Shown here in pieces: positions 19,844-51,606 of a stretch of DNA of 64,000 nt. The position numbers were made by a program, and so were the translations under genes. The notes below the pieces were generated by a model, which did not search any database, was not told the origin of the DNA, and saw only the letters and a program-made list of their open reading frames with translations. Where the stretch lies: NCBI RefSeq assembly GCF_058153355.1, contig NZ_CM177019.1; one strand, given 5' to 3'. Numbering within the stretch: position 1 is the stretch's first letter; the number at the start of each line of letters is the position of its first letter.

Positions 19844-20034
19844 CTTTTGTTAACTCCTTTTTATAGATGCGGGAGGGGATTCCTCACCCCGGTGCCGATT
19901 TTCAGGCATCCTGATTTAACTTAGCACCCGCGACTTAACTACAGGAAAACAAAGAGATAAATGTCTAATCCTGATGCAAATTGAGCCGATTTTTTAATCT
20001 TTACGGACTTTTACCCGCCTGGTTTATTAATTTC

Positions 20035-20066
20035 TTGACCTTCCCCTTGCTGGAAGGTTTAACCTT
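20035..20066 (+). promoter_or_regulatory. copA promoter with CueR (MerR-family) operator
   Basis: TTGACC at 20035-20040 followed by dyad CCTTCC-N7-GGAAGG at 20039-20057, a long MerR-type spacer and a -10-like element, about 40 bp upstream of the copA ATG. Confidence 0.75.
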
Positions 20067-20104
20067 TAACACAGTCAGTCAACACTGTCTTAAAGGAGTA
20101 CGTT

Positions 20105-22609
20105 ATGTCACAAACTATCGACCTGACCCTGGACGGCCTGTCCTGCGGTCACTGCGTTAAACGCGTGAAAGAAAGTCTCGAACAGCGCCCGGACGTTGAG
20201 CAGGCGGATGTGTCTATCACTGAAGCACACGTTACCGGTACTGCCAGTGCAGAACAGCTGATCGAAACCATCAAACAAGCGGGTTATGACGCATCTGTAA
20301 GCCACCCAAAGGCTAAACCGCTGGCGGAGTCATCAATCCCGTCGGAAGCACTGACAGCGGTTTCTGAGGCGCTTCCGGCAGCAAACGCCGATGACGATGA
20401 CAGTCAGCAGTTGCTGCTGAGCGGCATGAGCTGCGCCAGCTGTGTTACCCGCGTACAAAATGCGCTGCAAAGCGTACCGGGCGTCACTCAGGCACGGGTA
20501 AACCTGGCGGAGCGTACTGCGCTGGTGATGGGCAGTGCCTCCCCACAAGATTTAGTGCTGGCGGTGGAAAAAGCGGGCTACGGCGCGGAAGCGATTGAAG
20601 ATGACGCTAAACGCCGCGAGCGCCAGCAGGAAACCGCCGTCGCTACCATGAAGCGCTTCCGCTGGCAGGCAATTGTCGCGCTGGCGGTAGGTATCCCGGT
20701 GATGGTCTGGGGGATGATCGGCGATAACATGATGGTCACCGCCGACAACCGCAGTCTGTGGTTAGTTATCGGCCTGATAACGCTGGCGGTAATGGTTTTC
20801 GCCGGCGGGCATTTTTACCGTAGCGCATGGAAAAGCCTGCTGAACGGTGCGGCGACAATGGATACGCTGGTGGCGCTGGGTACTGGCGTGGCGTGGCTCT
20901 ATTCAATGAGCGTCAACCTGTGGCCGCAGTGGTTCCCGATGGAAGCGCGACATCTTTATTACGAAGCCAGTGCGATGATTATCGGTCTGATTAATCTCGG
21001 TCATATGCTGGAAGCGCGCGCACGTCAGCGTTCTTCAAAGGCGCTGGAGAAATTACTCGATTTAACCCCGCCGACGGCGCGCCTGGTTACTGACGAAGGT
21101 GAAAAAAGCGTGCCACTGGCAGATGTTCAGCCTGGTATGTTACTACGCCTGACGACCGGCGATCGCGTACCGGTAGATGGTGAAATTACCCAGGGCGAAG
21201 CGTGGCTGGATGAAGCAATGCTGACGGGCGAACCTATCCCACAGCAAAAAGGCGAAGGCGATAGTGTTCATGCAGGTACCGTGGTGCAGGACGGTAGCGT
21301 GCTGTTTCGTGCCAGTGCGGTTGGCAGCCATACTACGCTGTCACGGATCATTCGTATGGTGCGCCAGGCCCAGAGCAGTAAACCGGAAATCGGCCAGTTG
21401 GCGGATAAAATCTCTGCCGTATTTGTGCCGGTAGTGGTGGTGATTGCGCTAGTCAGTGCGGCCATCTGGTACTTCTTTGGTCCGGCACCGCAAATTGTTT
21501 ATACCCTGGTGATTGCCACTACGGTACTGATTATCGCCTGCCCGTGTGCGCTGGGGCTGGCAACGCCAATGTCGATTATTTCCGGCGTCGGGCGTGCGGC
21601 TGAATTTGGCGTGCTGGTACGGGACGCCGACGCGCTGCAACGCGCCAGTACGCTCGACACCGTAGTGTTCGATAAAACCGGGACGCTGACCGAAGGGAAG
21701 CCGCAGGTTGTCGCAGTAAAAACATTTGCTGATGTTGATGAAGCGCAAGCATTGCGTCTGGCGGCGGCACTGGAACAAGGTTCCAGCCATCCGCTGGCAC
21801 GGGCGATCCTCGATAAAGCAGGCGATATGCAGCTGCCGCAGGTCAACAGCTTCCGTACATTGCGTGGGCTGGGCGTGAGCGGTGAAGCAGAAGGTCATGC
21901 GTTATTGCTGGGTAATCAGGCGTTGTTAAATGACCAGCAAGTCGATACTAAAGCGATTGAAGCAGATATTTCAGCCCAGGCATCGCAAGGGGCAACGCCT
22001 GTGCTGCTGGCGGTTGACGGGAAAGCGGTAGCCCTGCTGGCTGTACGCGATCCATTGCGTAGTGATAGCGTGGCGGCGCTGCAACGTCTGCATAAAGCGG
22101 GATATCGTCTGGTGATGCTAACCGGGGATAACCCGACCACCGCCAATGCGATCGCCAAAGAGGCAGGGATTGATGAGGTGATAGCCGGGGTGCTGCCAGA
22201 CGGTAAAGCCGAAGCGATCAAACGTCTGCAAAGTGAAGGACGTCAGGTGGCAATGGTGGGTGACGGCATTAACGACGCGCCAGCACTGGCTCAGGCGGAT
22301 GTCGGTATTGCTATGGGTGGCGGCAGTGATGTTGCCATTGAAACCGCGGCGATTACCCTGATGCGCCATAGCCTGATGGGTGTTGCGGATGCGCTCGCAA
22401 TTTCCCGCGCAACGCTGCGCAACATGAAGCAGAACCTGCTCGGTGCGTTTATCTACAACAGCATTGGTATTCCGGTCGCCGCCGGTATTTTGTGGCCGTT
22501 CACGGGAACACTGCTTAACCCGGTAGTAGCCGGGGCAGCAATGGCACTCTCGTCGATTACCGTAGTGAGTAACGCCAACCGGTTGCTGCGGTTTAAACCG
22601 AAGGAATAA
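20105..22609 (+). CDS. copA: Cu(I)-translocating P1B-type ATPase
   Basis: 834-aa ORF; two N-terminal CxxC metal-binding domains (GLSCGHC, GMSCASC), CPC motif, DKTGT phosphorylation site, GDGINDAP. Confidence 0.97.
20305..20316 (+). other. copA: Programmed -1 ribosomal frameshift site in copA, producing the short CopA(Z) chaperone
   Basis: Slippery heptamer C_CCA_AAG at 20305-20311 at codons 68-70 (verified in frame: ...SHPKAKP). The -1 frame reads CCC AAA GGC TAA, with the stop at 20314-20316. The frameshift itself is established literature, not shown by sequence alone. Confidence 0.7.
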
Positions 22610-22659
22610 GTATGTCATTGCGGATGCGCTGCTTTAGGGTGGCGCATCTGGCATCGACG

Positions 22660-22805
22660 CATGCCTGCCGGATGCGGCATAAACGCCTTATCCGGCCTAC
22701 GATTCAGGCACAGGGTTGTAGGCCTGATAAGACGCGTAAGCGTCGCATCAGGCAATGGTGCTCGGATGCCGGATGCGGCGTGAACGCCTTATCCGGCATC
22801 CGAGA
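22660..22805. repeat. REP/BIME cluster (three REP units) in the copA-ybaP intergenic region
   Basis: Canonical REP palindromes (gcctgccggatgcggcataaacgccttatccggcctac and variants) in alternating orientation; the ORF-track 85-aa ORF at 22612-22869 is the typical REP translation artefact (RMRHKRLIRP). Confidence 0.8.
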
Positions 22806-22937
22806 TGAAGCGAATTTTTGGCCTTACGCGACCTTTTTGCACGTTATTCCCGGCGTGCCAAATATTTAATCCGTCCCAACTCCATTTGCGCCATCCCTCA
22901 CCGCGCGCTAGCATGATATTTCACAAAGGGAGGTCGT

Positions 22938-23732
22938 ATGGATCTGTTGTACCGGGTAAAAACGCTTTGGGCCGCGCTGCGCGGCAATCATTACACCTGG
23001 CCTGCTATCGATATCTCTCTTCCCGACCATCGCCATTTTCATCTGATCGGCAGTATTCATATGGGTAGCCACGATATGGCTCCCCTGCCCACCCGTTTGC
23101 TCAAAAAGCTCAAAAACGCCGATGCGCTGATCGTCGAGGCGGATGTTTCCACCAGCGATACGCCTTTTGCTAATTTGCCTGCCTGCGAGGCGCTGGAAGA
23201 GCGCATTAGCGAGGAGCAATTACAAAATCTGCAACACATAAGCCAGGAGATGGGTATTTCTCCATCGCTCTTTTCTACCCAACCACTATGGCAAATCGCG
23301 ATGGTTCTTCAGGCAACGCAAGCGCAAAAACTGGGGCTGCGGGCAGAATATGGTATCGATTACCAGCTATTGCAGGCGGCGAAGCAACAACATAAACCCG
23401 TGATTGAACTGGAAGGGGCAGAAAACCAGATTGCCATGTTGCTCCAGCTCCCTGACAAAGGACTGGCGCTGCTGGACGATACGCTGACCCACTGGCACAC
23501 CAATGCACGGTTGCTGCAACAAATGATGAGCTGGTGGCTGAATACGCCGCCGCAAAATAATGAAATAACGCTGCCCAATACGTTCAGTCAGTCGCTGTAC
23601 GATGTGCTGATGCATCAGCGAAATCTCGCCTGGCGGGATAAACTGCATGCTATGCCGCCGGGGCGCTATGTGGTCGCGGTCGGAGCTTTACATCTGTATG
23701 GAGAAGGGAATTTGCCGCAGATGTTGCGCTAA
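22938..23732 (+). CDS. ybaP: TraB-family protein YbaP
   Basis: 264-aa ORF matching YbaP by sequence recall and position. Confidence 0.9.
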   Translation: MDLLYRVKTLWAALRGNHYTWPAIDISLPDHRHFHLIGSIHMGSHDMAPLPTRLLKKLKNADALIVEADVSTSDTPFANLPACEALEERISEEQLQNLQHISQEMGISPSLFSTQPLWQIAMVLQATQAQKLGLRAEYGIDYQLLQAAKQQHKPVIELEGAENQIAMLLQLPDKGLALLDDTLTHWHTNARLLQQMMSWWLNTPPQNNEITLPNTFSQSLYDVLMHQRNLAWRDKLHAMPPGRYVVAVGALHLYGEGNLPQMLR

Positions 23733-23814
23733 AAAAATGGCCAATATCGCTATTGGCCCGTCAAAGAGGAATTTCATTTTTTTATTATTATGCCGTCACT
23801 TTAAGCGACGGTGT
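23733..23814 (-). ncRNA. chiX: ChiX (MicM/SroB) Hfq-dependent small RNA
   Basis: Minus-strand sequence ACACCGTCGCTTAAAGTGACGGCATAATAATAAAAAAATGAAATTCCTCTTTGACGGGCCAATAGCGATATTGGCCATTTTTTT matches my recollection of ChiX, including the terminator hairpin (GGCCAATAGCGATATTGGCC) and U-tract. Lies in the ybaP-ybaK intergenic region, antisense to both, as in K-12. Ends are approximate. Confidence 0.8.
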
Positions 23815-23935
23815 AACTCGATTGTCGCTCAATCTCACCATCCTGCCAATACTCTTAGGCAAGATGACTCTTTTTTTTGGACCGCCATCAGGCGTATGCT
23901 TGCTTCGTTTTTTTGTTTAAGGCAGGAAAATTACC

Positions 23936-24415
23936 ATGACACCCGCAGTTAAATTACTCGAAAAAAACAAGATTTCGTTTCAAATCCATACCTACGAGCA
24001 CGATCCGGCTGAAACCAATTTTGGCGATGAAGTCGTCAAAAAATTAGGTTTGAATCCGGATCAGGTCTACAAAACGCTGCTGGTGGCAGTGAACGGTGAT
24101 ATGAAGCACCTTGCCGTGGCCGTTACGCCGGTCGCAGGTCTACTGGATCTTAAAAAAGTAGCAAAAGCGCTGGGTGCCAAGAAAGTTGAGATGGCCGATC
24201 CGATGGTCGCGCAGCGTTCGACGGGATATCTGGTTGGGGGGATTAGCCCACTGGGGCAGAAAAAACGCCTGCCGACGATTATCGACGCCCCCGCGCAAGA
24301 GTTTGCCACTATTTTTGTTTCTGGCGGCAAGCGCGGGCTGGACATCGAACTGGCGGCAAGCGACCTGGCGAAGATCCTCGATGCCAAATTTGCTGATATC
24401 GCTCGTCGCGATTAA
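23936..24415 (+). CDS. ybaK: Cys-tRNA(Pro)/Cys-tRNA(Cys) deacylase YbaK
   Basis: 159-aa ORF, YbaK sequence recall. Confidence 0.95.
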
Positions 24416-24420
24416 GCATT

Positions 24421-24444
24421 GTGCCGGATGCGAACATCCGGCAC
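24421..24444. terminator. Hairpin between the convergent ybaK and ushA genes (likely bidirectional terminator)
   Basis: Inverted repeat gtgccggatg/catccggcac with 4-nt loop, immediately after the ybaK stop and before the ushA stop. Confidence 0.5.
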
Positions 24445-24451
24445 TTTCGGA

Positions 24452-26104
24452 TTACTGCCAGCTCACCTCACCTTTCGGTTCATAGACACTCACATCCAGC
24501 GGCGAGTTTTTCTGGATATACGCTTTCAGCACTTCAGCATCAATAAAGCCGGTATTCACATAGCCCGGTTTGTTATCCAGACGCGGATAGCCATCACCGC
24601 CAGTGGCATTGAAGTTTAATGTCGCCATACGGTAAGTTTTCGCCGGATCGACCGGTTCGCCTTTGATTTTCAGGTCGTTCAGTTTGCCGTCTTTCGCCAC
24701 AAAGCTAACGTTGGCAAATTGCGGATAGGCACCAGAATCAGGCTTCATTTGTGCGACGGCGGTCAGGTAATCAATCACCTCTTTACCGGTCATGTCGGCA
24801 TACACCACCACATTGCCGAATGGCTGCACTTTCAGCACATTTTTATAGCTGATATCACCTGCTTCGATAGAATCACGAATTCCGCCTCCGCTCATCACCG
24901 CAAAGTCGGCACCAGTGCGATCCATTTGTGCTGCCAGAATCAACCGCCCCATATTGGTCTGTACAAAACGCACTTTGCTGCGGTCGCCTTCCAGACGACC
25001 ATTGGTTTCGCCTATTTTCACTTCCAGCTGCGCTTTGCCTTTGTTCTGGAACGGCGATAACAGCGAAATAATTTGCTGGTTTTCGGCGATTTCAGGGGTG
25101 TAAAGCACACGCTCGCTTTTCCCGTCTTCCCAGGTCACTTTCTTCTTCAGGTTTACCGGAATCAACTGGTAGTTGACCATTTTCATTTCGCCGTTGCGAA
25201 ACTCAAAGTCGGCCCGACCAACGTACTTGCCCCACTCATGCGCCTGTACAATCCAGATGCCATTTTGTTGATCCGGTTTGCATGGCGTACCAGGAACGTA
25301 ATCGACCTGTTTTTTATTTTCTGCCGCCATACAGACTGGATCTTGCGAGTGACCTCCGACGATCATCGCCAGCGATCCGGCAGGCAGCGCGCGTGCCATC
25401 TCCACATCGCCCGGTGCATTAGAGCCGTGCTCACCGTTGTCGTAATGCCCCATATGGGTCGCCGCGATAATAATGTCTGGCTTTTCTGTCTGTTGCAGCT
25501 CCTGAATCACCAGCTTCGCTTCATCAGCGGGCTTACGAAATTCGATATCAGTGAAGTATTCCGGGTTACCAATTTTGGCTGTGTCATCGGTTGTCAGCCC
25601 AATAACGGCAATTTTCAGATCCTGACGCTTAAACAACGCCCATGGTTTAAACAGGCGCTCACCAGTGCTTTTTTGGTAGATATTGGCGGAAAGCAACGGG
25701 AACTTAGCCCACTTTTCCTGCTGGCGTAATACGGTGAGCGGGTTATCAAATTCATGATTACCGATTGCCATCGCATCATAGCCCACCAGATTCATACCGC
25801 GAAAATCAGGTTCGGCATCCTGTAAGTCGGACTCGGGCACGCCAGTATTAATGTCGCCACCGGAAAGTAGCAGCACGCTACCGCCTTCAGCTGCAACCTC
25901 TTTGCGGATACCATCCACCAGCGTTTTTTGCGCCGCCAGACCATATTCGCCATATTCATTGCGCCAAAAATGCCCATGATGATCATTGGTATGCAGAACT
26001 GTAATTTTGTAGGTTTTATCCTGCTCATAAGCCAGAGCAGTTTCACTCGCCAGTGTAAATGTGGTTAACAGTGCTAACGCCACGCCCCGCTGCAATAATT
26101 TCAT
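24452..26104 (-). CDS. ushA: UDP-sugar hydrolase / 5'-nucleotidase (periplasmic)
   Basis: 550-aa ORF with signal peptide and metallophosphatase motifs (HTNDHHGH, GNHEFD). Confidence 0.96.
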   Translation of the reverse strand: MKLLQRGVALALLTTFTLASETALAYEQDKTYKITVLHTNDHHGHFWRNEYGEYGLAAQKTLVDGIRKEVAAEGGSVLLLSGGDINTGVPESDLQDAEPDFRGMNLVGYDAMAIGNHEFDNPLTVLRQQEKWAKFPLLSANIYQKSTGERLFKPWALFKRQDLKIAVIGLTTDDTAKIGNPEYFTDIEFRKPADEAKLVIQELQQTEKPDIIIAATHMGHYDNGEHGSNAPGDVEMARALPAGSLAMIVGGHSQDPVCMAAENKKQVDYVPGTPCKPDQQNGIWIVQAHEWGKYVGRADFEFRNGEMKMVNYQLIPVNLKKKVTWEDGKSERVLYTPEIAENQQIISLLSPFQNKGKAQLEVKIGETNGRLEGDRSKVRFVQTNMGRLILAAQMDRTGADFAVMSGGGIRDSIEAGDISYKNVLKVQPFGNVVVYADMTGKEVIDYLTAVAQMKPDSGAYPQFANVSFVAKDGKLNDLKIKGEPVDPAKTYRMATLNFNATGGDGYPRLDNKPGYVNTGFIDAEVLKAYIQKNSPLDVSVYEPKGEVSWQ

Positions 26105-26321
26105 ACTTCTCTCCCTGATCAGATTTCAACGTGTTGAAAAATAGTATGACGCGACATCATAGACAAGTCTGCGTCCGGTGAAGATAAATCTGCATCCAGA
26201 TTAGAAATTCTGTATTCAGCGTTGAGACTTCCTTCAGGCGGCGCATACAGGTATGTTAGTCGGGTAATAATCACAAATAAGATCATTCTTTACATCGCAA
26301 CCCTGAAAAAGTGACTTTCCT

Positions 26322-27542
26322 ATGGCAATGAGTGAACAAACCCAGCCAGTGGCTGGCGCTGCTGCGTCAACGACCAAGGCCCGAACATCGTTTGGTATTT
26401 TAGGTGCTATCAGCCTCTCACATCTGCTGAACGACATGATCCAATCGCTGATTCTGGCGATTTATCCCCTGCTTCAGTCAGAATTTTCTCTGACATTTAT
26501 GCAAATTGGCATGATAACCCTCACCTTCCAGCTCGCCTCTTCACTATTGCAACCGGTGGTCGGCTACTGGACGGATAAATATCCGATGCCGTGGTCGTTG
26601 CCGATTAGCATGTGCTTTACCTTGAGCGGTCTGGTGCTGCTGGCGCTGGCGGGCAGTTTTGGCGCAGTTCTGCTGGCGGCGGCGTTGGTCGGCACTGGTT
26701 CGTCGGTCTTTCATCCGGAATCCTCACGCGTGGCCCGAATGGCGTCTGGTGGCCGTCATGGTCTGGCGCAATCTATCTTCCAGGTCGGCGGAAACTTTGG
26801 CAGTTCACTTGGGCCCTTGCTGGCGGCAGTAATTATCGCACCTTATGGCAAAGGTAACGTGGCGTGGTTTGTACTGGCTGCTCTGTTAGCTATCGTGGTG
26901 CTGGCGCAAATCAGCCGTTGGTACTCTGCACAGCACCGAATGAATAAGGGCAAACCCAAAGCAACGATTATCAATCCACTGCCGCGCAACAAAGTGGTAC
27001 TGGCGGTCAGCATTCTGTTAATCCTGATTTTCTCGAAATATTTCTATATGGCGAGCATCAGCAGCTATTACACCTTTTATCTGATGCAAAAATTCGGATT
27101 ATCTATCCAGAATGCCCAGCTTCATCTGTTTGCATTCCTGTTTGCCGTTGCGGCAGGTACGGTGATCGGCGGGCCTGTAGGGGATAAAATTGGACGGAAA
27201 TATGTGATTTGGGGCTCTATCCTCGGCGTTGCGCCGTTTACGCTGATTTTACCCTACGCCACCCTGCACTGGACGGGGGTTTTGACGGTGATTATTGGAT
27301 TTATCCTCGCTTCGGCGTTCTCTGCCATTCTGGTCTACGCTCAGGAGCTACTTCCAGGACGTATCGGTATGGTTTCTGGACTCTTTTTCGGTTTTGCTTT
27401 CGGCATGGGGGGTCTGGGAGCGGCAGTTCTGGGGCTTATCGCCGACCACACCAGCATCGAGTTAGTCTATAAAATCTGTGCTTTCCTGCCACTATTGGGG
27501 ATGTTGACCATATTCCTGCCTGATAACCGGCATAAAGACTGA
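26322..27542 (+). CDS. fsr: Fosmidomycin resistance MFS transporter
   Basis: 406-aa polytopic MFS ORF; sequence recall and position. Confidence 0.92.
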   Translation: MAMSEQTQPVAGAAASTTKARTSFGILGAISLSHLLNDMIQSLILAIYPLLQSEFSLTFMQIGMITLTFQLASSLLQPVVGYWTDKYPMPWSLPISMCFTLSGLVLLALAGSFGAVLLAAALVGTGSSVFHPESSRVARMASGGRHGLAQSIFQVGGNFGSSLGPLLAAVIIAPYGKGNVAWFVLAALLAIVVLAQISRWYSAQHRMNKGKPKATIINPLPRNKVVLAVSILLILIFSKYFYMASISSYYTFYLMQKFGLSIQNAQLHLFAFLFAVAAGTVIGGPVGDKIGRKYVIWGSILGVAPFTLILPYATLHWTGVLTVIIGFILASAFSAILVYAQELLPGRIGMVSGLFFGFAFGMGGLGAAVLGLIADHTSIELVYKICAFLPLLGMLTIFLPDNRHKD

Positions 27543-27779
27543 TTTCATTGCAGCCAAAGGCAAACTTTGGCTGCATCGTTTTACAGTCGCCATAAGCCTT
27601 TCCTCTGTTAAACCGCCTTCTGTTTTCCGATCCGTGCTTTTTTTGCCGCTAATTCCATTTTTCTGCAAAATTCAACAATTATTCATAAACATCATCAATG
27701 AAATTGTCATAAACTATTACCTGTAATTTTGGTTTTCCCGGCCAAAAATGGACAATAACCACCAGGAAAAGGAGACGGA

Positions 27780-29456
27780 ATGCATCACGCCACCCCGCTT
27801 ATCACCACCATTGTTGGCGGCCTTGTGCTCGCCTTTATCCTCGGCATGCTGGCCAATAAACTACGCATTTCTCCTCTGGTGGGATACCTGTTAGCAGGTG
27901 TGCTGGCGGGACCATTCACTCCTGGCTTTGTTGCCGATACCAAGCTCGCGCCGGAACTGGCGGAGCTGGGCGTTATTCTGCTGATGTTCGGCGTCGGTTT
28001 GCACTTTTCGCTGAAGGATTTGATGGCGGTAAAGGCCATCGCCATTCCCGGCGCGATCGCCCAGATAGCCGTGGCGACGCTGCTGGGTATGGCGCTCTCC
28101 GCCGTGCTGGGATGGTCGTTAATGACCGGTATCGTGTTCGGTTTATGTCTTTCCACCGCCAGTACCGTGGTGTTACTACGCGCACTTGAAGAACGGCAAT
28201 TAATAGACAGCCAGCGTGGGCAAATCGCCATCGGTTGGTTGATTGTGGAAGACCTGGTCATGGTTCTGACGCTGGTATTGCTGCCCGCAGTAGCAGGAAT
28301 GATGGAACAGGGTGATGTGGGCTTTGCGACGCTGGCCGTTGATATGGGGATCACCATCGGCAAGGTGATCGCATTTATTGCCATTATGATGCTGGTAGGT
28401 CGCCGTCTGGTGCCGTGGATTATGGCACGCAGCGCGGCAACCGGTTCCCGCGAGCTATTTACCCTGTCGGTGCTGACGCTAGCGTTAGGGATTGCTTTTG
28501 GCGCGGTGGAACTGTTTGACGTCTCCTTTGCGCTGGGCGCGTTCTTCGCCGGGATGGTACTGAACGAGTCTGAACTGAGTCACCGTGCTGCCCACGATAC
28601 GCTGCCATTGCGCGACGCGTTTGCGGTGCTGTTTTTTGTCTCCGTCGGAATGCTGTTTGATCCGTTAATTCTGATTCAGCAACCACTGGCGGTGCTAGCG
28701 ACGCTGGCGATTATTCTGTTTGGTAAGTCATTAGCCGCGTTTTTCCTGGTGCGACTGTTTGGTCACTCTCAACGTACGGCATTAACTATCGCCGCCAGCC
28801 TGGCGCAAATTGGTGAGTTCGCTTTTATCCTGGCGGGGCTGGGGATGGCGCTGGATCTGTTGCCGCAGGCCGGACAAAACCTGGTGCTGGCAGGGGCAAT
28901 CCTGTCGATTATGCTTAACCCGGTGCTGTTCGCGCTGCTGGAGAAATATCTGGCGAAGACCGAAACGCTGGAAGAGCAGACGCTGGAAGAAGCTATCGAA
29001 GAGGAGAAGCAGATTCCGGTGGATATCTGCAACCATGCGCTGCTGGTAGGTTATGGTCGTGTGGGCAGCCTGCTGGGGGAGAAGTTGCTCGCCTCTGATA
29101 TTCCTTTAGTGGTGATTGAGACGTCACGTACTCGCGTCGATGAACTGCGCGAGCGCGGGGTCCGCGCAGTATTGGGCAATGCGGCGAACGAAGAAATTAT
29201 GCAACTGGCGCATCTGGAATGTGCAAAATGGCTGATCCTGACGATTCCCAATGGTTATGAAGCGGGCGAGATTGTGGCGTCTGCCCGCGCGAAAAACCCG
29301 GATATTGAGATTATCGCCCGCGCCCATTATGACGACGAGGTAGCATATATTACCGAGCGCGGGGCGAATCAGGTGGTAATGGGCGAGCGTGAAATCGCCC
29401 GTACTATGCTGGAACTGCTGGAAACGCCACCGGCGGGTGAAGTGGTGACGGGGTAA
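27780..29456 (+). CDS. ybaL: CPA2-family cation/proton antiporter with C-terminal TrkA-N (Rossmann) domain
   Basis: 558-aa ORF; membrane domain followed by GYGRVG NAD-binding motif. Confidence 0.92.
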   Translation: MHHATPLITTIVGGLVLAFILGMLANKLRISPLVGYLLAGVLAGPFTPGFVADTKLAPELAELGVILLMFGVGLHFSLKDLMAVKAIAIPGAIAQIAVATLLGMALSAVLGWSLMTGIVFGLCLSTASTVVLLRALEERQLIDSQRGQIAIGWLIVEDLVMVLTLVLLPAVAGMMEQGDVGFATLAVDMGITIGKVIAFIAIMMLVGRRLVPWIMARSAATGSRELFTLSVLTLALGIAFGAVELFDVSFALGAFFAGMVLNESELSHRAAHDTLPLRDAFAVLFFVSVGMLFDPLILIQQPLAVLATLAIILFGKSLAAFFLVRLFGHSQRTALTIAASLAQIGEFAFILAGLGMALDLLPQAGQNLVLAGAILSIMLNPVLFALLEKYLAKTETLEEQTLEEAIEEEKQIPVDICNHALLVGYGRVGSLLGEKLLASDIPLVVIETSRTRVDELRERGVRAVLGNAANEEIMQLAHLECAKWLILTIPNGYEAGEIVASARAKNPDIEIIARAHYDDEVAYITERGANQVVMGEREIARTMLELLETPPAGEVVTG

Positions 29457-29467
29457 GACATTGATTC

Positions 29468-29650
29468 CATTGCCGGATGCGATGCTGACGCATCTTATCC
29501 GGCCTACAGGTGCCACCTTCCGAAGGTCGGATAAGGCGTTTATGTCGCATCCGACTGTCATTGCCGGATGCGATGTTGACACATCTTATCCAGCATACAG
29601 GTGCCATCTTTCGTAGGTCGGATAAGGCGTTTATGCCGCATCCGACTGTC
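29468..29650. repeat. BIME: tandem duplication of a roughly 90-bp unit containing paired REP elements
   Basis: cattgccggatgcgatg(c/t)tgac(g/a)catcttatcc...gtcggataaggcgtttatg(t/c)cgcatccgactgtc occurs twice in direct tandem between ybaL and gsk. Confidence 0.8.
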
Positions 29651-29664
29651 ATCAGTCCGATAAC

Positions 29665-30969
29665 TTAACGATCCCAGTAAGACTCTTCCAGACTGTCTTC
29701 ACGCTCCGGTAAGCCGCGCGTTAAACGAGGTGAATGCTGGTTCAGTACCTGATAGCTCACACGGTTAGCATATTTACACACCTGCGCTAACGATGAATAA
29801 GTCAGCCAGGTGAATTTATGTTTGCTGGAGTTTGGTACGTTGCTACGGTGGTAGCTGTTGGCGGTAATGTCATGCAGCAATGCTGCCAGTGCGCCATCCC
29901 CGGCACCGTTGGTGTTCATGATCTTTTCCGGCCCGCCCATGTACGGCGCAATGTGAGAATAGACGCGCAGCGGGTTCTGGCAATCTTTATGGCGCATGGC
30001 GCGGCTAAACTCATACTGGTTAAATTCCGCTATAGCGCCCGGCAGCAGCGGATGCTGGGTTTTACGTTTCGCTTCGTCTTCAGTAAAGCCCGCCATATAC
30101 AAGCCGATTGGCCCGGCGGTGCACAGCACCAGATCAACCCAGTCCAGCGCCTTGTCAGATGCCAACAACGGATCGCTTTCTCCGGTCAACGCTTCGGCCT
30201 CATCTTCGTTCATCGCAAGGATAGAGACGTGATCTTTGAGGAATTGCTGCCACCACTGCGGATTCTCGGCAATGACAAACTTGGTGCCCAGCGTCAGCAC
30301 CACCGGTACGTTATATTTCGTCGCGTACTCAATGGCTTTCATGGTTGCTTCCGGCATGGGTTCACCCGGCTTACAACGCACCAGATAAGAAGTGAGAACC
30401 AGTGCCGAGGCTCCGGCAATCACATCTTCCGGAATACTTTCAGCCCGCAGCTGGTTCATGTGGCCAGGGCTGATAGCAAAGGTACGTTCCCCGGACTCGC
30501 CAATCAGGGTAAAGCAGCGACCAATCGGGCCGTCCACGCCTTGCAGATAGTTAAGATCGGTACGGCTGGAGGTGTTACACAGGTAACGATAGGCATAGCT
30601 GCCAATTTCAATATTGCTGCACATGACGCCCAGCAGCACCGAACGGTCGTCCGCGAGCACCGAGTAGTTGTGCATGGTGTTACCAATGGTGCCACCCGCA
30701 AACTGGTGAGTAATCAGGTTTTTCTGTTTCAGCTCCTGATAAAGTGCTTCGGCAACATCATCCTCAATCACCAGTGAATGCCCGGCGCTTAATCCATAAC
30801 GCTCAATGAACTCATCATCCACTTTCGCTTCAATATCGACCAGCGTTTGATCGATACCCACTACCCAGGCAGCGCTGGTTTCGTTTTCTGGCTGGAATTG
30901 CTGAAGCAGCGGATCGCGTGCGTTTACGGGAAAATAATGTTTGGATTTACGTTTGCCGGGAAATTTCAT
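29665..30969 (-). CDS. gsk: Inosine-guanosine kinase
   Basis: 434-aa ORF, PfkB-family sequence; Gsk recall. Confidence 0.96.
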   Translation of the reverse strand: MKFPGKRKSKHYFPVNARDPLLQQFQPENETSAAWVVGIDQTLVDIEAKVDDEFIERYGLSAGHSLVIEDDVAEALYQELKQKNLITHQFAGGTIGNTMHNYSVLADDRSVLLGVMCSNIEIGSYAYRYLCNTSSRTDLNYLQGVDGPIGRCFTLIGESGERTFAISPGHMNQLRAESIPEDVIAGASALVLTSYLVRCKPGEPMPEATMKAIEYATKYNVPVVLTLGTKFVIAENPQWWQQFLKDHVSILAMNEDEAEALTGESDPLLASDKALDWVDLVLCTAGPIGLYMAGFTEDEAKRKTQHPLLPGAIAEFNQYEFSRAMRHKDCQNPLRVYSHIAPYMGGPEKIMNTNGAGDGALAALLHDITANSYHRSNVPNSSKHKFTWLTYSSLAQVCKYANRVSYQVLNQHSPRLTRGLPEREDSLEESYWDR

Positions 30970-31120
30970 GGTTGTTTTTACGGGTGGTTAACTGAGCGGC
31001 GAATGTTAACACAATCAGACGGGAGCGCGCGAGACGCAGCCAGTTTCAATATCAGCAGGCGGGATCGCATTTTCATGGCAGTGGTTCCTTACAATGACGT
31101 AATTTGAAAGGAGTTTTTGC

Positions 31121-32080
31121 ATGAAGCCGGAAAACAAATTACCCGTTCTGGACCTTATTTCTGCTGAAATGAAGACCGTTGTGAATACTCTTCAGCCGGA
31201 TTTACCGCCCTGGCCCGCAACGGGAACGATTGCTGAGCAACGACAGTATTACACACTTGAGCGCCGATTCTGGAATGCGGGCGCTCCAGAAATGGCAACC
31301 AGCGCTTACATGGTTCCCACACCTTATGGTCAGGTCGAGACTCGCCTCTACTCACCCAAAAGTCACAGCCCAGCGACACTATTTTATCTGCATGGTGGTG
31401 GTTTTATTCTCGGCAATCTTGATACCCACGATCGGATTATGCGACTGCTGGCAAATTACACCCAATGTACAGTGATTGGTATTGCTTACACTCTTTCGCC
31501 GGAAGCACGTTTTCCGCAGGCAATAGAGGAAATTGTGGCTGCCTGTTGCCACTTCCACCAGCAGGCAGAGGATTATCAAATCAATATGTCACGCATTGGT
31601 TTTGCTGGTGATTCTGCAGGCGCAATGCTGGCGCTCGCCGGTGCGTTGTGGTTACGTGATAAACAGATAGATTGCGGTGAAGTTGCGGGCGTTTTGCTGT
31701 GGTATGGGCTTTACGGATTACGGGATTCCGTGACTCGTCGTCTGTTGGGCGGTGTTTGGGATGGCTTAACGCAAGAGGATTTACAGATGTATGAAGAGGC
31801 GTATTTAAGCAACGACGCTGACCGCGAGTCGCCGTATTACTGCCTGTTTAATAATGATCTCACTCGTGAGGTTCCGCCCTGTTTTATTGCCGGAGCGGAG
31901 TTCGATCCGCTGCTGGATGACAGCCGTCTGCTTTACCAGACGTTAGCGGCGCATCAGCAGCCCTGTGAGTTCAAACTCTACCCAGGCACGCTGCACGCCT
32001 TTTTGCATTATTCACGGATGATGAAAGCCGCCGACGAGGCTCTTCGCGACGGCGCTCAGTTCTTTACCGCTCAGCTTTAG
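31121..32080 (+). CDS. aes: Acetyl esterase
   Basis: 319-aa ORF with HGGG oxyanion motif and GDSAG nucleophile elbow; 3' end overlaps the convergent hemH by 4 nt. Confidence 0.95.
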
Positions 32081-33039
32081 CGATACGCGGCAACAAGATT
32101 AGCCATCATTTCGATATGTTCCGGTGTGGCATTAAGCGCCGGAATATATTCGTATTTTTTCCCGCCCGCACCGAGGAAGACCTCACGGTTTTGCTCGGCA
32201 ATCTCTTCCAGCGTCTCCAGACAATCTGCAGCAAAGCCCGGGCACATCACCTGAATATGACCTACGCCTTTTTCTCCGAGCATTTTCAGTGTTTCGTCGG
32301 TATAAGGCATCAACCAGGGTTCCCGACCAAAGCGTGACTGATAGGTCATCATCACTTTTTCCGGTGCCATCCCCAGCGCGGAAGCCAGTTCGCGAGTCGT
32401 TGTGCGACAACGTTGCGGGTAATCATCGCCTTCATCGGCATAACGCTGGGGAATACCGTGATAAGAGAGCAGCACTAGATCAGGTTCGCCATGTTTAGCA
32501 AAAGAAGCACGTACGCTGTTCGCCAGTGCATTAATGTAATCGTGATTATCGGCGTAATCACGAATAAACGATATCCCCGGAACGCTACGTTTGCGCGCCA
32601 GAATGCGTGCCAGCTCATCCCATACCGCACCGACCGTTGAACAGGAGTATTGCGGATAAAGCGGCAGCACCACGATATGATCTACATGTTCTGCCAGTAG
32701 TTCATCTACGGCGCTTTCCAGTGATGGCGAGCCGTAGCTCATTCCCAGCGCTACGGGCGTCTCCGGTAAACGTTGTGCCAGCGCCTGCTGTTGCTGGCGG
32801 CTGTAAACCATCAGTGGCGAGCCACCTTCCATCCAGACAGAGGCATACAACTTCGCCACACGCGGCGAGCGCAGCGGCAAAATCACGCCGCGCAGCAACG
32901 GCCACCACAACAGCCGTGAGGTATCAACCACGCGTCTGTCGCTTAAAAATTGTTTCAGGTAGCGTTTTACCGCTTCAGGAGTGGGGGCATCGGGTGTACC
33001 CAGGTTTGCCAGCAGAATACCGGTTTTAGTTTGACGCAT
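32077..33039 (-). CDS. hemH: Ferrochelatase
   Basis: 320-aa ORF, ferrochelatase sequence recall. Confidence 0.96.
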
Positions 33040-33190
33040 TACCGCCTCTTATCGATTCAACTTGTTGATAATTGTAGCGGAAAAGTGAAGAAGAAGAACT
33101 AATTGCTGTGAGAGGCTAAATCAGAAAATATCATAAGGCGCTGTATCTTTAATGAGAGATTTTTGCCAGCGCCAGATTTTCCAGAAGGTG

Positions 33191-33694
33191 CTATTGCGTC
33201 ACGGGGGTACCATTGACGTTAAGTGTATATGGCCAGATTAAATTTGATGCCCTACCACACATTGGTGTAGGCGTTCTGAAAGTGGTCCTGATCGTATACT
33301 CTCCGGCTTTCTGGGGAGTGCCTGAAAATTTTACCCACGCCTCTTCGGTCAGAGAATCTGTATTCTTTTTCAGAAACTCTGCATTTTCTTCCGTGATGGG
33401 GAAAAGTTCACCCTCTTTGTTTTTTGCCCACAATGACATTTGTATGCCTTCAGGCAAAGTTTCAGGCTTTTCGGGACGAATGTCCGGGGCTTCATACCAA
33501 CTTATGGTCGTTTTTACGACGGTTTCGTAATACTGGCCCACCTGAGCATCAGGAAGCTCTTGTTTTTCATTAACTTTATCATTACTTGTAACATGAGAAA
33601 GAGCTACACCGACGTAACACATAGGCATTTCACACCCTGTCAGCAATGACGCAAGCAATAAAATACCTGTTGGTAATAAACAGCGATAACGCAT
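33191..33694 (-). CDS. Small predicted lipoprotein with one putative Ig-like (He_PIG-like) domain; not part of K-12 adk-hemH spacing as recalled
   Basis: Preferred start is the internal Met at 33694 (MRYRCLLPTGILLLASLLTGC, lipobox LTGC, AAGGA about 8 nt upstream); the longer ORF-track start at 33763 lies inside a REP element. Mature part contains LPEGI...SGTPQKAGEYTIRTTF. Visibly AT-richer than flanking genes (not computed). Confidence 0.6.
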   Translation of the reverse strand: MRYRCLLPTGILLLASLLTGCEMPMCYVGVALSHVTSNDKVNEKQELPDAQVGQYYETVVKTTISWYEAPDIRPEKPETLPEGIQMSLWAKNKEGELFPITEENAEFLKKNTDSLTEEAWVKFSGTPQKAGEYTIRTTFRTPTPMCGRASNLIWPYTLNVNGTPVTQ

Positions 33695-33760
33695 ATTTAC
33701 GTCCTTGTTAAAGGCCGGAAGCGTATCCAGCCTCCAGTTGCTGGCAAAGTGCGCTTTGTT

Positions 33761-33820
33761 CATGCCGGATGCGGCGCGAACGCCTTATCCGGCCTACAAA
33801 CTGACAAGTTTGTAGGCCTG
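33761..33820. repeat. REP element pair between the lipoprotein gene and adk
   Basis: catgccggatgcggcgcgaacgccttatccggcctacaaactgacaagtttgtaggcctg. Confidence 0.7.
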
Positions 33821-33875
33821 TTCCCCTCACCCTCTCCCCGAAGGAGCGAAGGGACTGTCCGTGCGCGCTTTCGAA

Positions 33876-34592
<717 letters not shown>

Positions 34593-34700: not shown

Positions 34701-36575
34701 TCAGGAAACCAGCAGCTGGTTCATACGACGAATAAACAGGTTCGGATCTTCCAGCGTACCGCGCTCTGCCAGCAGCGCCTGATCCAACAGTAATTCTACC
34801 CACTCGCTGAACTTCGCTTCATCTTCAGTATCTGCCGCACGTTTCACCAGTACGTGATCCGGGTTCAGTTCGAAGATGTATTTCACTTCTGGTACTTTCT
34901 GGCCCGCCGCAGCGAACAGTTTCGCCATCTGGGTGCTCATTTCGTCCGCGTCGGTAGAGACAATCGCTGGCGTATCAGTCAGACGGTGAGTCAGACGGAC
35001 ATCTTTCACGCGCTCGCCGAGCAGGGCTTTCACACGGTCGATGAACGGAGTCAGTGCTTTCTCCGCTTCTTTCGCGCTCTCATCAACTTCGTCAGCCAGT
35101 TTTTCCAGCGACTCGTCAACTTTAGACACAGACTGGAACGGTTTACCGTCAAACTCAGTCAGATAGTTCATCATCCACTCATCGATGCGGTCGGAAAGCA
35201 GCAGAACTTCGATGCCTTTCTTACGCAGCAGTTCCAGGTGCGGGCTGCTCTTCGCTGCCGCATAGCTGTCTGCGGTGATGTAGTAGATTTTCTCCTGCCC
35301 TTCTTTCATGCGGGAAACGTAGTCTTCCAGAGACACGGTCTGCGCAGAAGAGTCGGTATGGGTAGAAGCAAACCGCAGCAGTTTGGCGATCGCTTCCTGG
35401 TTAGCGAAATCTTCCGCCGGACCTTCTTTCAGTACCAGGCCAAACTGTTGCCAGAAGGTCTGGTATTTTTCCGCGTCATCTTTCGCCAGTTTTTCCAGCA
35501 TTTGCAGTACACGCTTGGTCAGCGCATTGCGCAGGTTGCGGGTTACGGTGCTGTCCTGGAGGATTTCACGGGAAACGTTCAGCGGCAGATCGCTGGAGTC
35601 AATCAGACCACGCACGAAGCGCAGATAGTTCGGCATGAACTGTTCTGCGTCGTCCATGATGAACACACGCTGAACATACAGTTTCAGGCCGTGTTTATGA
35701 TCGCGGTTCCACATATCCCACGGTGCCTGCGACGGAATATACAGCAGGCTGGTGTACTCCTGCTTACCTTCAACGCGGTTGTGGCTCCAGGTCAGCGGAT
35801 CGTTAAAGTCGTGGGCGATGTGTTTGTAGAACTCTTTGTACTCTTCGTCGGTGATTTCCGACTTGTTACGGGTCCACAGAGCCTGCGCTTTGTTGATTTT
35901 CTCCCAGGAAATAACGGTTTCGCCGTCTTTCTCTTCGCGTTTTTCGATCTCTACCGGCAGCGCGATATGGTCGGAGTATTTGCTGATGATAGAGCGCACG
36001 CGCCAGTCATCGAGGAACTCGTCTTCGCCTTCACGCAGATGCAGGGTGATTTCAGTACCACGATCTTCTTTGGTGATGTCGGCAACGGTGTATTCACCTT
36101 CACCCGCCGATTCCCAGAACACGCCGTTTTCTGGTTTTTCGCCTGCCGCGCGAGTACGCACGGTCACTTTGTCGGCCACGATAAACGCAGAGTAGAAACC
36201 AACACCGAACTGACCGATCAGCTGGCTGTCTTTCGCCTGGTCAGAACCCAAGGATTCGAGGAATGATTTGGTGCCGGATTTAGCGATAGTCCCCAGATGG
36301 TCAATTACTTCGTCGCGGGTCATCCCCACGCCGTTGTCGGAAATGGTCAGCGTGCGCTTGTCTTTATTGAAAGAAACACGAACGCGCAGTTCGCCATCAC
36401 CTTCGTACAGGTCCGGATTAGAGAGCGCACGGAAACGCAGCTTGTCCGCCGCATCGGAGGCGTTAGAGATAAGCTCACGCAGGAAGATTTCTTTATTGGA
36501 ATAGAGAGAATGGATCATCAGGTGCAGAAGCTGTTTCACTTCTGACTGAAAACCACGAGTTTCTTGTCCTTTCAT
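34701..36575 (-). CDS. htpG: Hsp90-family chaperone HtpG
   Basis: 624-aa ORF, GHKL ATPase N-terminus ([18 protein letters not shown]). Confidence 0.97.
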
Positions 36576-44700: not shown

Positions 44701-45159
44701 AGACGCCAGATCGTTTTGTGCGTTTTGCAAATCGTCCAGCGCCTGGGCAACGCGAGTTTCCAGCTGGCGCAACGAAAGCGTGCTCAGAATTTTGCGCGTT
44801 TCTTCGTCGTTATCGACATCGCTAAGTGCTGTTAACGCCGCGGTCGCCTGACGCATTTTTTCCGGCGCTTCAGCGACTTTTTGCCGTAGCTGAACTGTCT
44901 CTTCTTTTATGCGATCGATTTTATCGAGGGTGGCTAATGTATCTGTCAGATCCTGCTGCACCAGTTTGTCCTGAGCAGAAAGATCTTTTTGTTTATTCAG
45001 TGAGTCAAGTTGTGCCTGCAGGTCCGCTTTTGTCGGCAGATCACCATTCGATGGCGCCCGCGCAAACGCCGCATTCTGGCATAACAAGACCAAAACAAAA
45101 GCAATGAATGCTGAAAAAACAAAATGCCGTGATCGTTTGTAATACTGGAACATAGTCAT
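41797..45159 (-). CDS. mscK: Potassium-dependent mechanosensitive channel MscK (KefA)
   Basis: 1120-aa ORF; signal peptide, long coiled-coil periplasmic region, multi-TM domain and MscS-like C-terminus. Confidence 0.96.
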   Translation of the reverse strand: MTMFQYYKRSRHFVFSAFIAFVLVLLCQNAAFARAPSNGDLPTKADLQAQLDSLNKQKDLSAQDKLVQQDLTDTLATLDKIDRIKEETVQLRQKVAEAPEKMRQATAALTALSDVDNDEETRKILSTLSLRQLETRVAQALDDLQNAQNDLASYNSQLVSLQTQPERVQNAMYNASQQLQQIRSRLDGTDVGETALRPSQKVLMQAQQALLNAEIDQQRKSLEGNTVLQDTLQKQRDYVTANSARLEHQLQLLQEAVNSKRLTLTEKTAQEAVSPDEAARIQANPLVKQELEINQQLSQRLITATENGNQLMQQNIKVKNWLERALQSERNIKEQIAVLKGSLLLSRILYQQQQTLPSADELENMTNRIADLRLEQFEVNQQRDALFQSDAFVNKLEEGHANEVNSEVHDALLQVVDMRRELLDQLNKQLGNQLMMAINLQINQQQLMSVSKNLKSILTQQIFWVNSNRPMDWDWIKAFPQTLKDEFKSMKITVNWEKAWPAVFIAFLAGLPLLLIAGLIHWRLGWLKAYQQKLASAVGSLRNDSQLNTPKAILIDLIRALPVCLIILAVGLILLTMQLNISELLWSFSKKLAIFWLVFGLCWKVLEKNGVAVRHFGMPEQQTSHWRRQIVRISLALLPIHFWSVVAELSPLHLMDDVLGQAMIFFNLLLIAFLVWPMCRESWRDKESHTMRLVTITVLSIIPIALMVLTATGYFYTTLRLSGRWIETVYLVIIWNLLYQTVLRGLSVAARRIAWRRALARRQNLVKEGAEGAEPPEEPTIALEQVNQQTLRITMLLMFALFGVMFWAIWSDLITVFSYLDSITLWHYNGTEAGAAVVKNVTMGSLLFAIIASMVAWALIRNLPGLLEVLVLSRLNMRQGASYAITTILNYIIIAVGAMTVFGSLGVSWDKLQWLAAALSVGLGFGLQEIFGNFVSGLIILFERPVRIGDTVTIGTYSGTVSKIRIRATTITDFDRKEVIIPNKAFVTERLINWSLTDTTTRLVIRLGVAYGSDLEKVRKVLLKAATEHPRVMHEPMPEVFFTAFGASTLDHELRLYVRELRDRSRTVDELNRTIDQLCRENDINIAFNQLEVHLHNEKGDEVTEVKREYKGDDPTPAVG

Positions 45160-45286
45160 GATGAATGAAGGTTTCTGAACCTGAAGAACGACCTGAAAAA
45201 GTCAAACCGCAAGAATATCACGACGCAATGAACCAGAATAGCAACGGCGAAAATGTCCAGGAAAAATCCTGGAGTCAGATTCAGGG

Positions 45287-45934
45287 TTATTCGTTAGTGG
45301 CAGGGTAACGAAGCGTGGGGCACAGGAGATACATCTCCAGTAAGATGGCGACGTAATCGCGAGCTTCTTTTTTAAGATCAAAAGATTGCGGGGCAAAGAG
45401 CCAGTTTTCCATCAGGCCGGAAATATAGCCACGCATAATAATTGCTGCGCGACGTGTCATTAAATCCGCAGGCAACATTTTTGCTTCAATACAATGTTTT
45501 AACGTTTGTTCTATACGGTCATAACTTTCCAGACAGAGATTACGTTGTGCCTGTTGCACAACAGCCATTTCTCCGACAAATTCGCATTTGTGGAATATAA
45601 TCTCCATCAATAATCGACGCCGTTCTTCTGTCACCGTGGATTCAAGAACATGAATTAATATCTCTCTTAATACTGAGAGTGGATCGCCAGGGAATTTTGC
45701 CTGATACTCAAGCTCTAGTTCACCAATATTGGATTCTGACAGTTCCCAGATCTCACTGAACAAATCCGACTTGTCTTTAAAATGCCAATAGATTGCACCG
45801 CGCGTAACGCCAGCTGCTTTTGCAATCTCGCCCAGCGAGGTGGATGATACCCCCTGCTGTGAGAAAAGACGTAAAGCCACATCGAGGATGTGTTGGCGCG
45901 TTTCCTGCGCTTCTTGTTTGGTTTTTCGTGCCAT
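45287..45934 (-). CDS. acrR: TetR-family repressor AcrR
   Basis: 215-aa ORF divergent from acrA; N-terminal HTH. Confidence 0.96.
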
Positions 45935-45962
45935 ATGTTCGTGAATTTACAGGCGTTAGATT

Positions 45963-45986
45963 TACATACATTTGTGAATGTATGTA
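45963..45986. promoter_or_regulatory. AcrR operator palindrome in the acrR-acrA divergent promoter region
   Basis: 24-bp perfect inverted repeat tacatacatttgtgaatgtatgta between the acrR and acrA starts. Confidence 0.7.
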
Positions 45987-46075
45987 CCATAGCACGACGA
46001 TAATATAAACGCAGCAATGGGTTTATTAACTTTTGACCATTGACCAATTTGAAATCGGACACTCGAGGTTTACAT

Positions 46076-47288: not shown

Positions 47289-50441
<3,153 letters not shown>

Positions 50442-50458
50442 TACAACGTGTAATCACT

Positions 50459-50486
50459 AAGGCCGCGCAAGCGGCCTTTTTTAGAT
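50459..50486 (+). terminator. Rho-independent terminator of acrAB
   Basis: aaggccgcgcaagcggcc stem-loop followed by tttttt, 18 bp after the acrB stop. Confidence 0.7.
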
Positions 50487-50987
50487 GCATAACCTACGAG
50501 TTGAATGGGGAACTGAACAATCAACTCAGAATCTCATATGAAAACCAGTATTAACTTCGCATAAAATTCATAAAAAATACTGATTGTTAGTTAATTTATA
50601 TTAAGCAGGGCTAATAGATTTAATAATCCATAATCATTTAGAGGCTTTTCTTAATTATTTGCGGTAATTCTTTATTCATTCCTCGGTTATTACGACATAT
50701 TCAGAGCATTCCTGGTATTAGTGTGACCAATTTCATCTGGCGATAATCTTGAAATGTTATGAACAGTTCGAGCAAACTGCTTTTACCTGCAGCGGGTTGG
50801 TGCTAGTATGAAAAAGTGAGTCCTATCCCGCTTCCTTCCTATTTGTAATTTTTCGTAATAATGCGATGAAAACCTGCAAAGAGTGGCTTATAGTTAAGCT
50901 AACAAACGAGAGGGCAAGTCCAGGTCAGTAAGTTTTTTCCATCCCGAAAGGTGTCCGTTAGTTCAACCGCTAAGAAGGGGACGCGTT

Positions 50988-51362: not shown

Positions 51363-51387
51363 AATTATTACAACCATGGGTAGAAGT

Positions 51388-51606
51388 ATGTCCGAAAAAC
51401 CTTTAACCAAAACCGATTATTTAATGCGTTTACGTCGTTGCCAGACAATTGACACGCTGGAGCGTGTTATCGAGAAAAATAAATACGAATTATCAGATAA
51501 TGAACTGGCGGTATTTTACTCAGCCGCAGATCACCGCCTCGCCGAATTGACTATGAATAAACTGTACGACAAGATCCCTTCCTCAGTATGGAAATTTATT
51601 CGCTAA
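51388..51606 (+). CDS. hha: Haemolysin expression modulator Hha
   Basis: 72 aa from [35 protein letters not shown]...; the ORF track merges it into a longer upstream-extended ORF. Confidence 0.96.

Follow-up and report, generated by a model that had tools for sequence, protein, structure and literature searches.

A lipoprotein gene between adk and hemH in Escherichia, probably an ancestral resident of the locus that has been lost repeatedly

Between adk and hemH, the window (the whole stretch of 64,000 nucleotides that was analysed) holds an open reading frame for a 167-residue predicted lipoprotein precursor. The minus strand carries, in order, htpG, adk, this ORF and hemH; the ORF is thus co-directional with all three neighbours, as a first-pass annotation of this DNA had stated. 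The coordinates also bear out its distance of 836 bp between adk and hemH (33040-33875), an interval that contains just the coding sequence and short spacers (Table 1). The ORF that it had delimited, beginning MRYRCLLPTGILLLASLLTG-C, agrees with the CDS of PGAP, which annotates an identical CDS in strain 2017-02-2CC under the label “hypothetical protein”. The annotated version in strain 2013C-4282 is 190 aa long. Its start, at 33763 within the REP element, had been raised as an alternative, but it cannot be a conserved one, given that only 45 nt separate the adk stop from the ATG in E. whittamii. The homologues start with MR(N/K/Y), and the start at 33694 lines up with theirs. For K-12, the annotation had given a gap of about 130 bp and no gene. 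The gene is indeed absent there; the gap in W3110, however, is 235 bp, and the figure of about 130 bp fits the other major E. coli allele, of 131 bp, and not K-12.

Table 1. Coordinates of the genes and sequence elements at the adk-hemH locus of the window
Feature	Position	Strand	Remarks
hemH (downstream neighbour)	32077..33039	-	
hemH leader/promoter-proximal block	33040..33115	-	common to 3/3 E. coli spacer alleles (alignment)
Segment missing from the K-12-type spacer	33165..33706		542 bp: Shine-Dalgarno, whole CDS and 26 nt after the stop
CDS, 167-aa lipoprotein precursor	33191..33694	-	stop codon included
Signal peptide and lipobox (MRYRCLLPTGILLLASLLTG-C)	33632..33694	-	PS51257-type pattern; Cys in at least 90% of the family alignment
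Shine-Dalgarno AAGGA	33702..33706	-	7 nt upstream of the ATG
GC-rich hairpin and short T-run (GGAGGCTGGATACGCTTCCGGCC TTTAAC)	33707..33737	-	directly upstream of the Shine-Dalgarno; conserved adk terminator-type hairpin
REP element	33764..33793	-	4 copies in the window at <=3 mismatches, 0 in shuffles; naRNA4/REP Rfam match sub-threshold
28-nt perfect palindrome	33781-33808		adjoins the REP
G+C-rich palindromic element (CCCTCACCC...GGGGAGAGGG type)	33809..33872	-	beside the adk stop; from alignments, hairpin in fold
adk (upstream neighbour)	33876..34520	-	protein identical to K-12 Adk
htpG	34701-36575	-	precedes adk on the minus strand
aes		+	

Four lineages other than that of the window have the gene between adk and hemH: Salmonella (locus L003), Enterobacteriaceae bacterium LSJC7 (L025), E. 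whittamii (L027) and a 1-kb metagenome contig (L035), whose upstream fragment translates to the C-terminus of Adk and whose downstream fragment encodes a ferrochelatase. The layout is the same in all five: the adk stop, a GC hairpin, TTT(T)(T)AC, (A/G)GGATGT, 5-8 nt and the ATG. The (A/G)GGATGT equivalent of the window's Shine-Dalgarno is conserved in E. whittamii, LSJC7, the metagenome contig and most Salmonella copies, for which it was read back from a translated upstream KDV; L003, the single Salmonella locus for which the DNA itself was read, has AAGTATGT at this site. The hairpin precedes the gene in 5/5 lineages (z -1.7 to -5.5) and is present in K-12 too; that of the window folds with -17.1 kcal/mol (z -3.6). 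Its stems differ by lineage (GGCCGGA/TCCGGCC, GCCGGG/CCCGGC, CCGGGGA/TCCCCGG and CCAGGCC/GGCCTGG); it is the structure that is conserved here, not the stem sequence. T-runs of 4-6 follow the hairpin in E. whittamii, Salmonella, LSJC7 and the metagenome contig. The window has TTT only, and because of this short run its hairpin was not called as a terminator in a promoter/terminator scan.

The ATG of the gene is found 12-20 nt after this conserved hairpin and T-run. A simple scan of the gene's strand from adk to the ATG revealed no sigma-70-like promoter. Because none is detectable between hairpin and ATG, transcription most likely reads through from adk and would continue into hemH. No terminator was found after the gene, and the region past its stop is without significant structure (z 0.2).

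Closer to adk, the spacer is occupied by repeats. The REP element reported earlier on this side of the gene is there; the window has three others, and shuffled sequences have none. It matches the GCCGGATG...CATCCGGC-type consensus of REPs, which are imperfect palindromes of about 30-35 nt repeated in intergenic DNA. Positions 671-761 of the spacer, used as a query, also match elsewhere in E. coli genomes. The REP is absent from both E. whittamii and the K-12 allele; together with the adjoining 28-nt palindrome it makes up an extra, E. coli-specific insertion that lengthens the window-type allele by about 57 nt. Since E. whittamii carries the gene without it, the REP is a later addition to the adk-proximal spacer and no part of a cassette. 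The G+C-rich palindrome beside the adk stop, which we take to be BoxC-like, is common to the K-12-type and window-type spacers and absent from E. whittamii. With its REP and G+C-rich palindrome, and with a REP cluster in a Salmonella non-carrier, the adk-hemH spacer is akin to the spacers of E. coli and Salmonella that REP/BIME and other small palindromic repeats have remodelled. It differs from these in that one allele still holds a protein-coding gene, to which the repeats are additions or replacements and not the origin of the ORF.

The precursor has the charged n-region (MRYR), hydrophobic core (CLLPTGILLLASL) and lipobox (of the form [LVI][ASTVI][GAS]C) of a bacterial lipoprotein. The match to a PROSITE PS51257-type pattern, with LTGC as the lipobox and Cys21 as the predicted lipidated residue, together with the conservation of this cysteine in the family, upholds the earlier prediction that the product is a lipoprotein. 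The Sec pathway would export the precursor, which would then be lipidated at Cys21 and processed by signal peptidase II. Residue +2 is Glu, so that the Asp retention signal is missing, and no member of the family has Asp at this position. Because +2 is Glu and not Asp, the Lol system would probably sort the protein to the outer membrane.

The mature protein has 147 residues and is predicted to be one Ig/cadherin-like beta-sandwich. An AlphaFold2 model built from a 15-sequence alignment, which shows this fold, has a mean pLDDT of 79; 10-residue blocks between residues 41 and 140 average 81-96, and the N-terminal tether (residues 19-35) falls below 50. The earlier guess of a single Ig-like domain is thus supported at the level of the fold, and by sequence the domain belongs to no named family. 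A helical insertion at about residues 100-114 is variable in the family. Members that pass the lipobox pattern have exactly two further cysteines, which in the window protein are Cys26 and Cys146, the latter within an MCG motif. These two probably form a disulfide that would tie the N-terminal tether to the last hairpin.

Searches of 5.8 billion proteins with the window protein returned only two close clusters, one of Escherichia (32 members) and one of Salmonella enterica (13 members, 51-55% identical to the window protein). About a dozen further proteins of 118-173 aa, from Proteus, Affinibrenneria salicis, Enterobacteriaceae bacterium LSJC7 and metagenome organisms, emerged when 1.84 billion cluster representatives were searched exhaustively with an HMM, and a later profile search added a Providencia homologue. 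The lipobox cysteine is found in all full-length members, which share the motifs LPxAxVGxYY, LPxG, W..SGTPxKAGxY and MCGxS. Among the homologues located at adk-hemH, amino-acid identity to the window protein declines from 93% in E. whittamii to 55% in Salmonella, 36% in the metagenome contig and 29% in LSJC7. A profile of four sequences, searched against genome contigs, found E. whittamii, LSJC7 and an unrelated Streptococcus repeat protein only; distant members such as that of Proteus are out of reach for this profile. Elsewhere in the family the gene has other surroundings. The Proteus homologue lies between sodB and a TauE gene, two further copies adjoin a YdjC-GtrA-GT2-PMT cluster, and no conserved gene neighbour was found across the family. 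At the Proteus locus (L022), a 119-aa ORF at 3561-3920 with no Pfam match stands on the same strand, directly upstream of the homologue. This ORF may be a partner gene, but the adk-hemH loci do not have it.

The proposed BLASTP and HMM searches had a mixed outcome: the gene belongs to a real family with homologues, but this family matches no curated one. Pfam gave no hit to the window protein at a threshold as loose as E<=10, and sequence searches of Pfam, NCBIfam, PHROGs, PADLOC and the PDB, with both the protein itself and the profile of its family as queries, gave nothing significant. PHROG and PADLOC models likewise had no significant match to six family members. We found no literature on the protein's WP accessions or on a lipoprotein encoded between adk and hemH. 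The nearest named family is that of the He_PIG/dystroglycan-type cadherin-like Ig domains (PF05345; the N-terminal domain of alpha-dystroglycan and the cadherin-like modules of SraP), which are also beta-sandwiches of about 100 residues. The family motifs LPxAxxGxxY and (S/T)GTPxxxGxY resemble the He_PIG signature. Multi-repeat surface proteins are also matched by the family HMM, through the SGTPxKAG motif; one of them (P0034) consists of Cadherin_4/Big_9 repeats. No significant He_PIG match was obtained, the best being a weak one (E=0.017) in 1 of the 15 family members. The window protein also differs from these proteins in being a single domain on a lipid anchor instead of a tandem array in a large adhesin, and its family has a cysteine pair and a variable helical insertion of its own.

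At the level of structure, Foldseek matched the model to small, uncharacterised lipoproteins of Morganella, Proteus, Aggregatibacter, Kluyvera, Xenorhabdus and Serratia in AFDB50, and to generic Ig folds with low TM-scores in the PDB. The AFDB/UniProt entries named “Lipoprotein” from these genera, and from Providencia and Affinibrenneria, are of similar size (about 125-170 aa) and have a lipobox and the same predicted fold (Foldseek E 3e-10 to 1e-4), at 21-30% sequence identity; those of Proteus, Providencia and Affinibrenneria are detectable as homologues by sequence. Chagasin-type cysteine-protease inhibitors (MEROPS I42), which are small Ig-like sandwiches as well, appear among the low-ranking matches (ranks 22, 44 and 48 in AFDB50; 19 and 22 in the PDB). 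With no match of the window protein to Pfam or to the family's HMM, and with TM-scores of 0.22-0.43, the likeness is one of generic fold, and this assignment was rejected. The immunity-type role guessed in the first-pass annotation was abandoned, as neither a partner gene nor a family match for an immunity protein of a toxin pair was found. A prophage moron was also rejected, there being no prophage context and no family match. Nor does the gene belong with anti-phage defence or phage lipoproteins, for PADLOC and PHROG searches gave no significant hit and the neighbours are housekeeping genes. Given the Ig fold, the lack of catalytic motifs and the lack of a conserved gene partner, the protein looks like a stand-alone binding module for a putative ligand.

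The gene is rare in E. coli and Salmonella. Of 5426 complete E. coli genomes, the K-12-type spacer occurs in 2913, the 131-bp spacer in 2410 (ST131 included) and the gene in only 3 (2013C-4282, WL297 and 2017-02-2CC), which makes it accessory in E. coli. None of these genomes matches the window exactly. Strain 2013C-4282 belongs to cryptic clade I (PMC10100065), as does another carrier, TW10509 (PMC7716201). A further clade I strain, EC42405, has the 131-bp allele; clade I is thus polymorphic at adk-hemH. E. whittamii is cryptic clade II. Over the aes-hemH segment, the best identity to the window is 98.5%, and only 94 genomes exceed 95%. Because EC42405 is among these 94, we infer that the window is clade-I-like at this locus. 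The Salmonella carriers are of rare serovars (Lexington, Portland, Dortmund, Kotte and Claibornei), and no homologue was found in Klebsiella, Citrobacter or Enterobacter.

Comparison of the spacers indicates how the gene may have disappeared. Positions 1-76 or 1-89 of the spacer, which include the hemH leader, are matched in nearly all E. coli genomes by megablast. The K-12-type spacer reads hairpin-TTTTAC followed by AAAAACCTC..., a jump straight to sequence that aligns from window position 33164 downward; the 38 nt downstream match window positions 33117-33164 at 31/38, a score reached by 0/2000 shuffles. As this spacer keeps the hairpin on one side and the downstream sequence on the other, and hence both borders, it reads as a 542-bp deletion of the gene segment. 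The G+C-rich palindrome that it shares with the window-type allele, and that E. whittamii lacks, points to an origin of the deletion in a window-type E. coli allele. The 131-bp spacer is unrelated sequence with a hairpin of its own. In a Salmonella non-carrier, whose flanks are 98-99% identical to those of a carrier, a REP cluster takes the place of hairpin and gene. The htpG-adk spacer of Salmonella is length-polymorphic too, with 473 bp in a non-carrier (L020, 4437-4911) and 240 bp in a carrier (L003, 4103-4344).

As the first-pass annotation observed, the gene is AT-richer than its neighbours: its GC content is 43.8% (GC3 40.5%), against 51.8% for adk and 53.5% for hemH, and lies at the 4th percentile of 504-bp windows across the 64 kb. 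Such atypical composition is one mark of a genomic island. Yet the Salmonella and E. whittamii orthologues are equally AT-rich, and the LSJC7 copy matches the GC of its host. As the bias is shared by Escherichia and Salmonella, it is old and does not date a recent transfer. Other stretches of the window with a GC content of 43.8% or less in 504-bp windows are 15651-17904, 45051-46104 and 50201-52054.

Divergence at synonymous sites was compared with that of the flanking genes. Between the window and Salmonella, dS is 1.29 for the gene, 0.77 for adk, 0.81 for htpG and 1.47 for hemH. Between the window and E. whittamii, it is 0.076 for the gene and 0.17-0.33 for the flanks (adk 0.17, hemH 0.33). 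The dN/dS of the gene (0.27 to Salmonella and 0.42 to E. whittamii), set against 0.03-0.05 for the neighbours, shows purifying selection on a gene that evolves some 5-10 times faster than adk, htpG and hemH. The E. coli carriers are 99.3-99.8% identical within about 1 kb of the gene, as opposed to about 98% over 24 kb. This low diversity, together with the low dS to E. whittamii, makes it plausible that homologous recombination has carried the allele from one Escherichia lineage to another as well.

Other parts of the window are likewise uneven in their relationships. Relative to K-12, the hemH side (17588-33128) is 95.4-95.7% identical and the adk side (33824-64000) 97.3%, and the number of mismatches to the compared genomes in 17588-64000 varies patchily from 0 to 48 per 500 bp, as is typical of a recombination mosaic. 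Positions 1-17600 encode a giant SiiEA/BapA-related Ig-repeat adhesin and a TolC-family outer-membrane protein. This part has no counterpart in the compared K-12 region (W3110 455,000-545,000); it is about 87% identical to the best of the 5426 complete E. coli genomes, and only 4 of these cover at least 80% of it.

How should these observations be reconciled? We consider it likely that a small envelope lipoprotein gene, vertically old and ancestral at adk-hemH, has been lost repeatedly, its product being a read-through-expressed binding module. The arrangement adk-hairpin-gene-hemH would predate the split of Escherichia and Salmonella. The gene would have left E. coli either through the 542-bp deletion that yielded the K-12-type allele or through replacement by the unrelated 131-bp spacer, and most Salmonella through the REP cluster; the window would keep the ancestral state, with a REP added later. 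This reading rests on the shared slot and hairpin/Shine-Dalgarno/ATG layout of the orthologues, a dS that tracks the flanks, the deletion scar in K-12 and the apparent immobility of the gene. Several points weigh against it: the gene is still AT-rich (GC3 about 41%) despite its supposedly long residence; the lack of homologues in Klebsiella, Citrobacter and Enterobacter requires many independent losses; the low diversity around the gene and its low dS to E. whittamii hint at exchange between Escherichia lineages; and the scan called neither a promoter on the gene's strand nor a terminator at the window's hairpin. The first-pass annotation had instead proposed a horizontally acquired cargo gene, that is, foreign AT-rich DNA inserted recently between adk and hemH in a few E. 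coli. The composition of the gene, its presence in a mere 3/5426 complete genomes and the near-identical tract around it in carriers whose surroundings differ by about 2% would all be expected of such an event. We nevertheless hold it to be very improbable. It is already largely refuted by the syntenic orthologues, for the same slot and the same hairpin/Shine-Dalgarno/ATG layout recur in E. whittamii, Salmonella, LSJC7 and the metagenome contig. Further, the dS to Salmonella equals that of the flanks, and on both sides of the gene segment the border is still present in the K-12 allele. The borders of the locus have no mobility genes, integrase, transposase, target duplication or att/tRNA site; those of the gene segment consist of the conserved hairpin and unique sequence, with no repeats bounding a cassette. 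No copy of the gene was found by tblastn in 72,556 plasmids and 50,697 phages. Two other marks of an island, absence from the same site in related genera and copies on mobile elements, are thus missing. The same-slot orthologues and the K-12 scar in fact reverse the polarity of the original claim: the window represents the old state, and it is K-12 that lost the gene.

The main rival concerns how the present carriers came by the gene, and it accepts that the locus is ancient. A sister lineage that never lost the gene, resembling cryptic clades I/II, may have returned it to the E. coli carriers by homologous recombination, with crossovers in the flanking adk and hemH homology. This route is plausible, if on balance unlikely. 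It would explain why the gene is less diverged from E. whittamii (dS 0.076) than adk and hemH are, why carriers with diverged backgrounds share an almost identical tract of about 1.5-3 kb, and why clade I is polymorphic, with the 131-bp allele in EC42405 and the gene in 2013C-4282. But the palindrome beside adk is common to the window and K-12-type alleles and is not found in E. whittamii, which marks the window allele as native to E. coli sensu lato. In addition, adk evolves slowly anyway, so that low diversity there is weak evidence, and 167 codons offer few synonymous sites. A more radical alternative denies that there is a functional gene at all, and sees in the ORF a chance or decaying frame within a REP-rich spacer. 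The want of any match to a curated family, the lack of a detectable promoter, the loss from nearly all E. coli and Salmonella and a dN/dS above that of the neighbours could be cited in its favour, yet it is scarcely credible. Five lineages keep the frame intact, at identities as low as 29%, and with it the lipobox, cysteines and motifs; a dN/dS of 0.27 is well below 1; the fold is predicted confidently from a shallow alignment; and the Shine-Dalgarno is conserved. Because homologues at 93, 55, 36 and 29% identity keep the lipobox, the two cysteines and the motifs, and in light of the dN/dS and the confident core of the AlphaFold2 model, the lipoprotein of the adk-hemH spacer is a real gene.

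If the ancestral origin is correct, the short adk-hemH junction of K-12 arose by deletion, and the rare allele found in cryptic clade I/II Escherichia and a few Salmonella serovars preserves an older arrangement of three genes. The case also cautions against reading recent horizontal acquisition from AT-richness and within-species rarity alone. A speculative and rather improbable extension is that selection acting in two directions on a surface-exposed or periplasmic Ig-like lipoprotein maintains the polymorphism of this slot in E. coli sensu lato and Salmonella enterica. As, for example, a receptor or target for a phage, a colicin or a host factor, the protein could be an advantage in certain niches and a cost in others. 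Such selection would also account for both the fast evolution and the repeated clean loss of the gene, whose expression would then depend on read-through of the adk terminator. The biological pay-off will be modest unless a ligand or a phenotype is found. The analysis defines a family of small lipoproteins with a single Ig domain in Enterobacterales and other Gammaproteobacteria that is covered by no Pfam, NCBIfam, PHROG or PADLOC model. The main interest of the locus lies in this undescribed family, and in a presence/absence polymorphism that is common to two genera.
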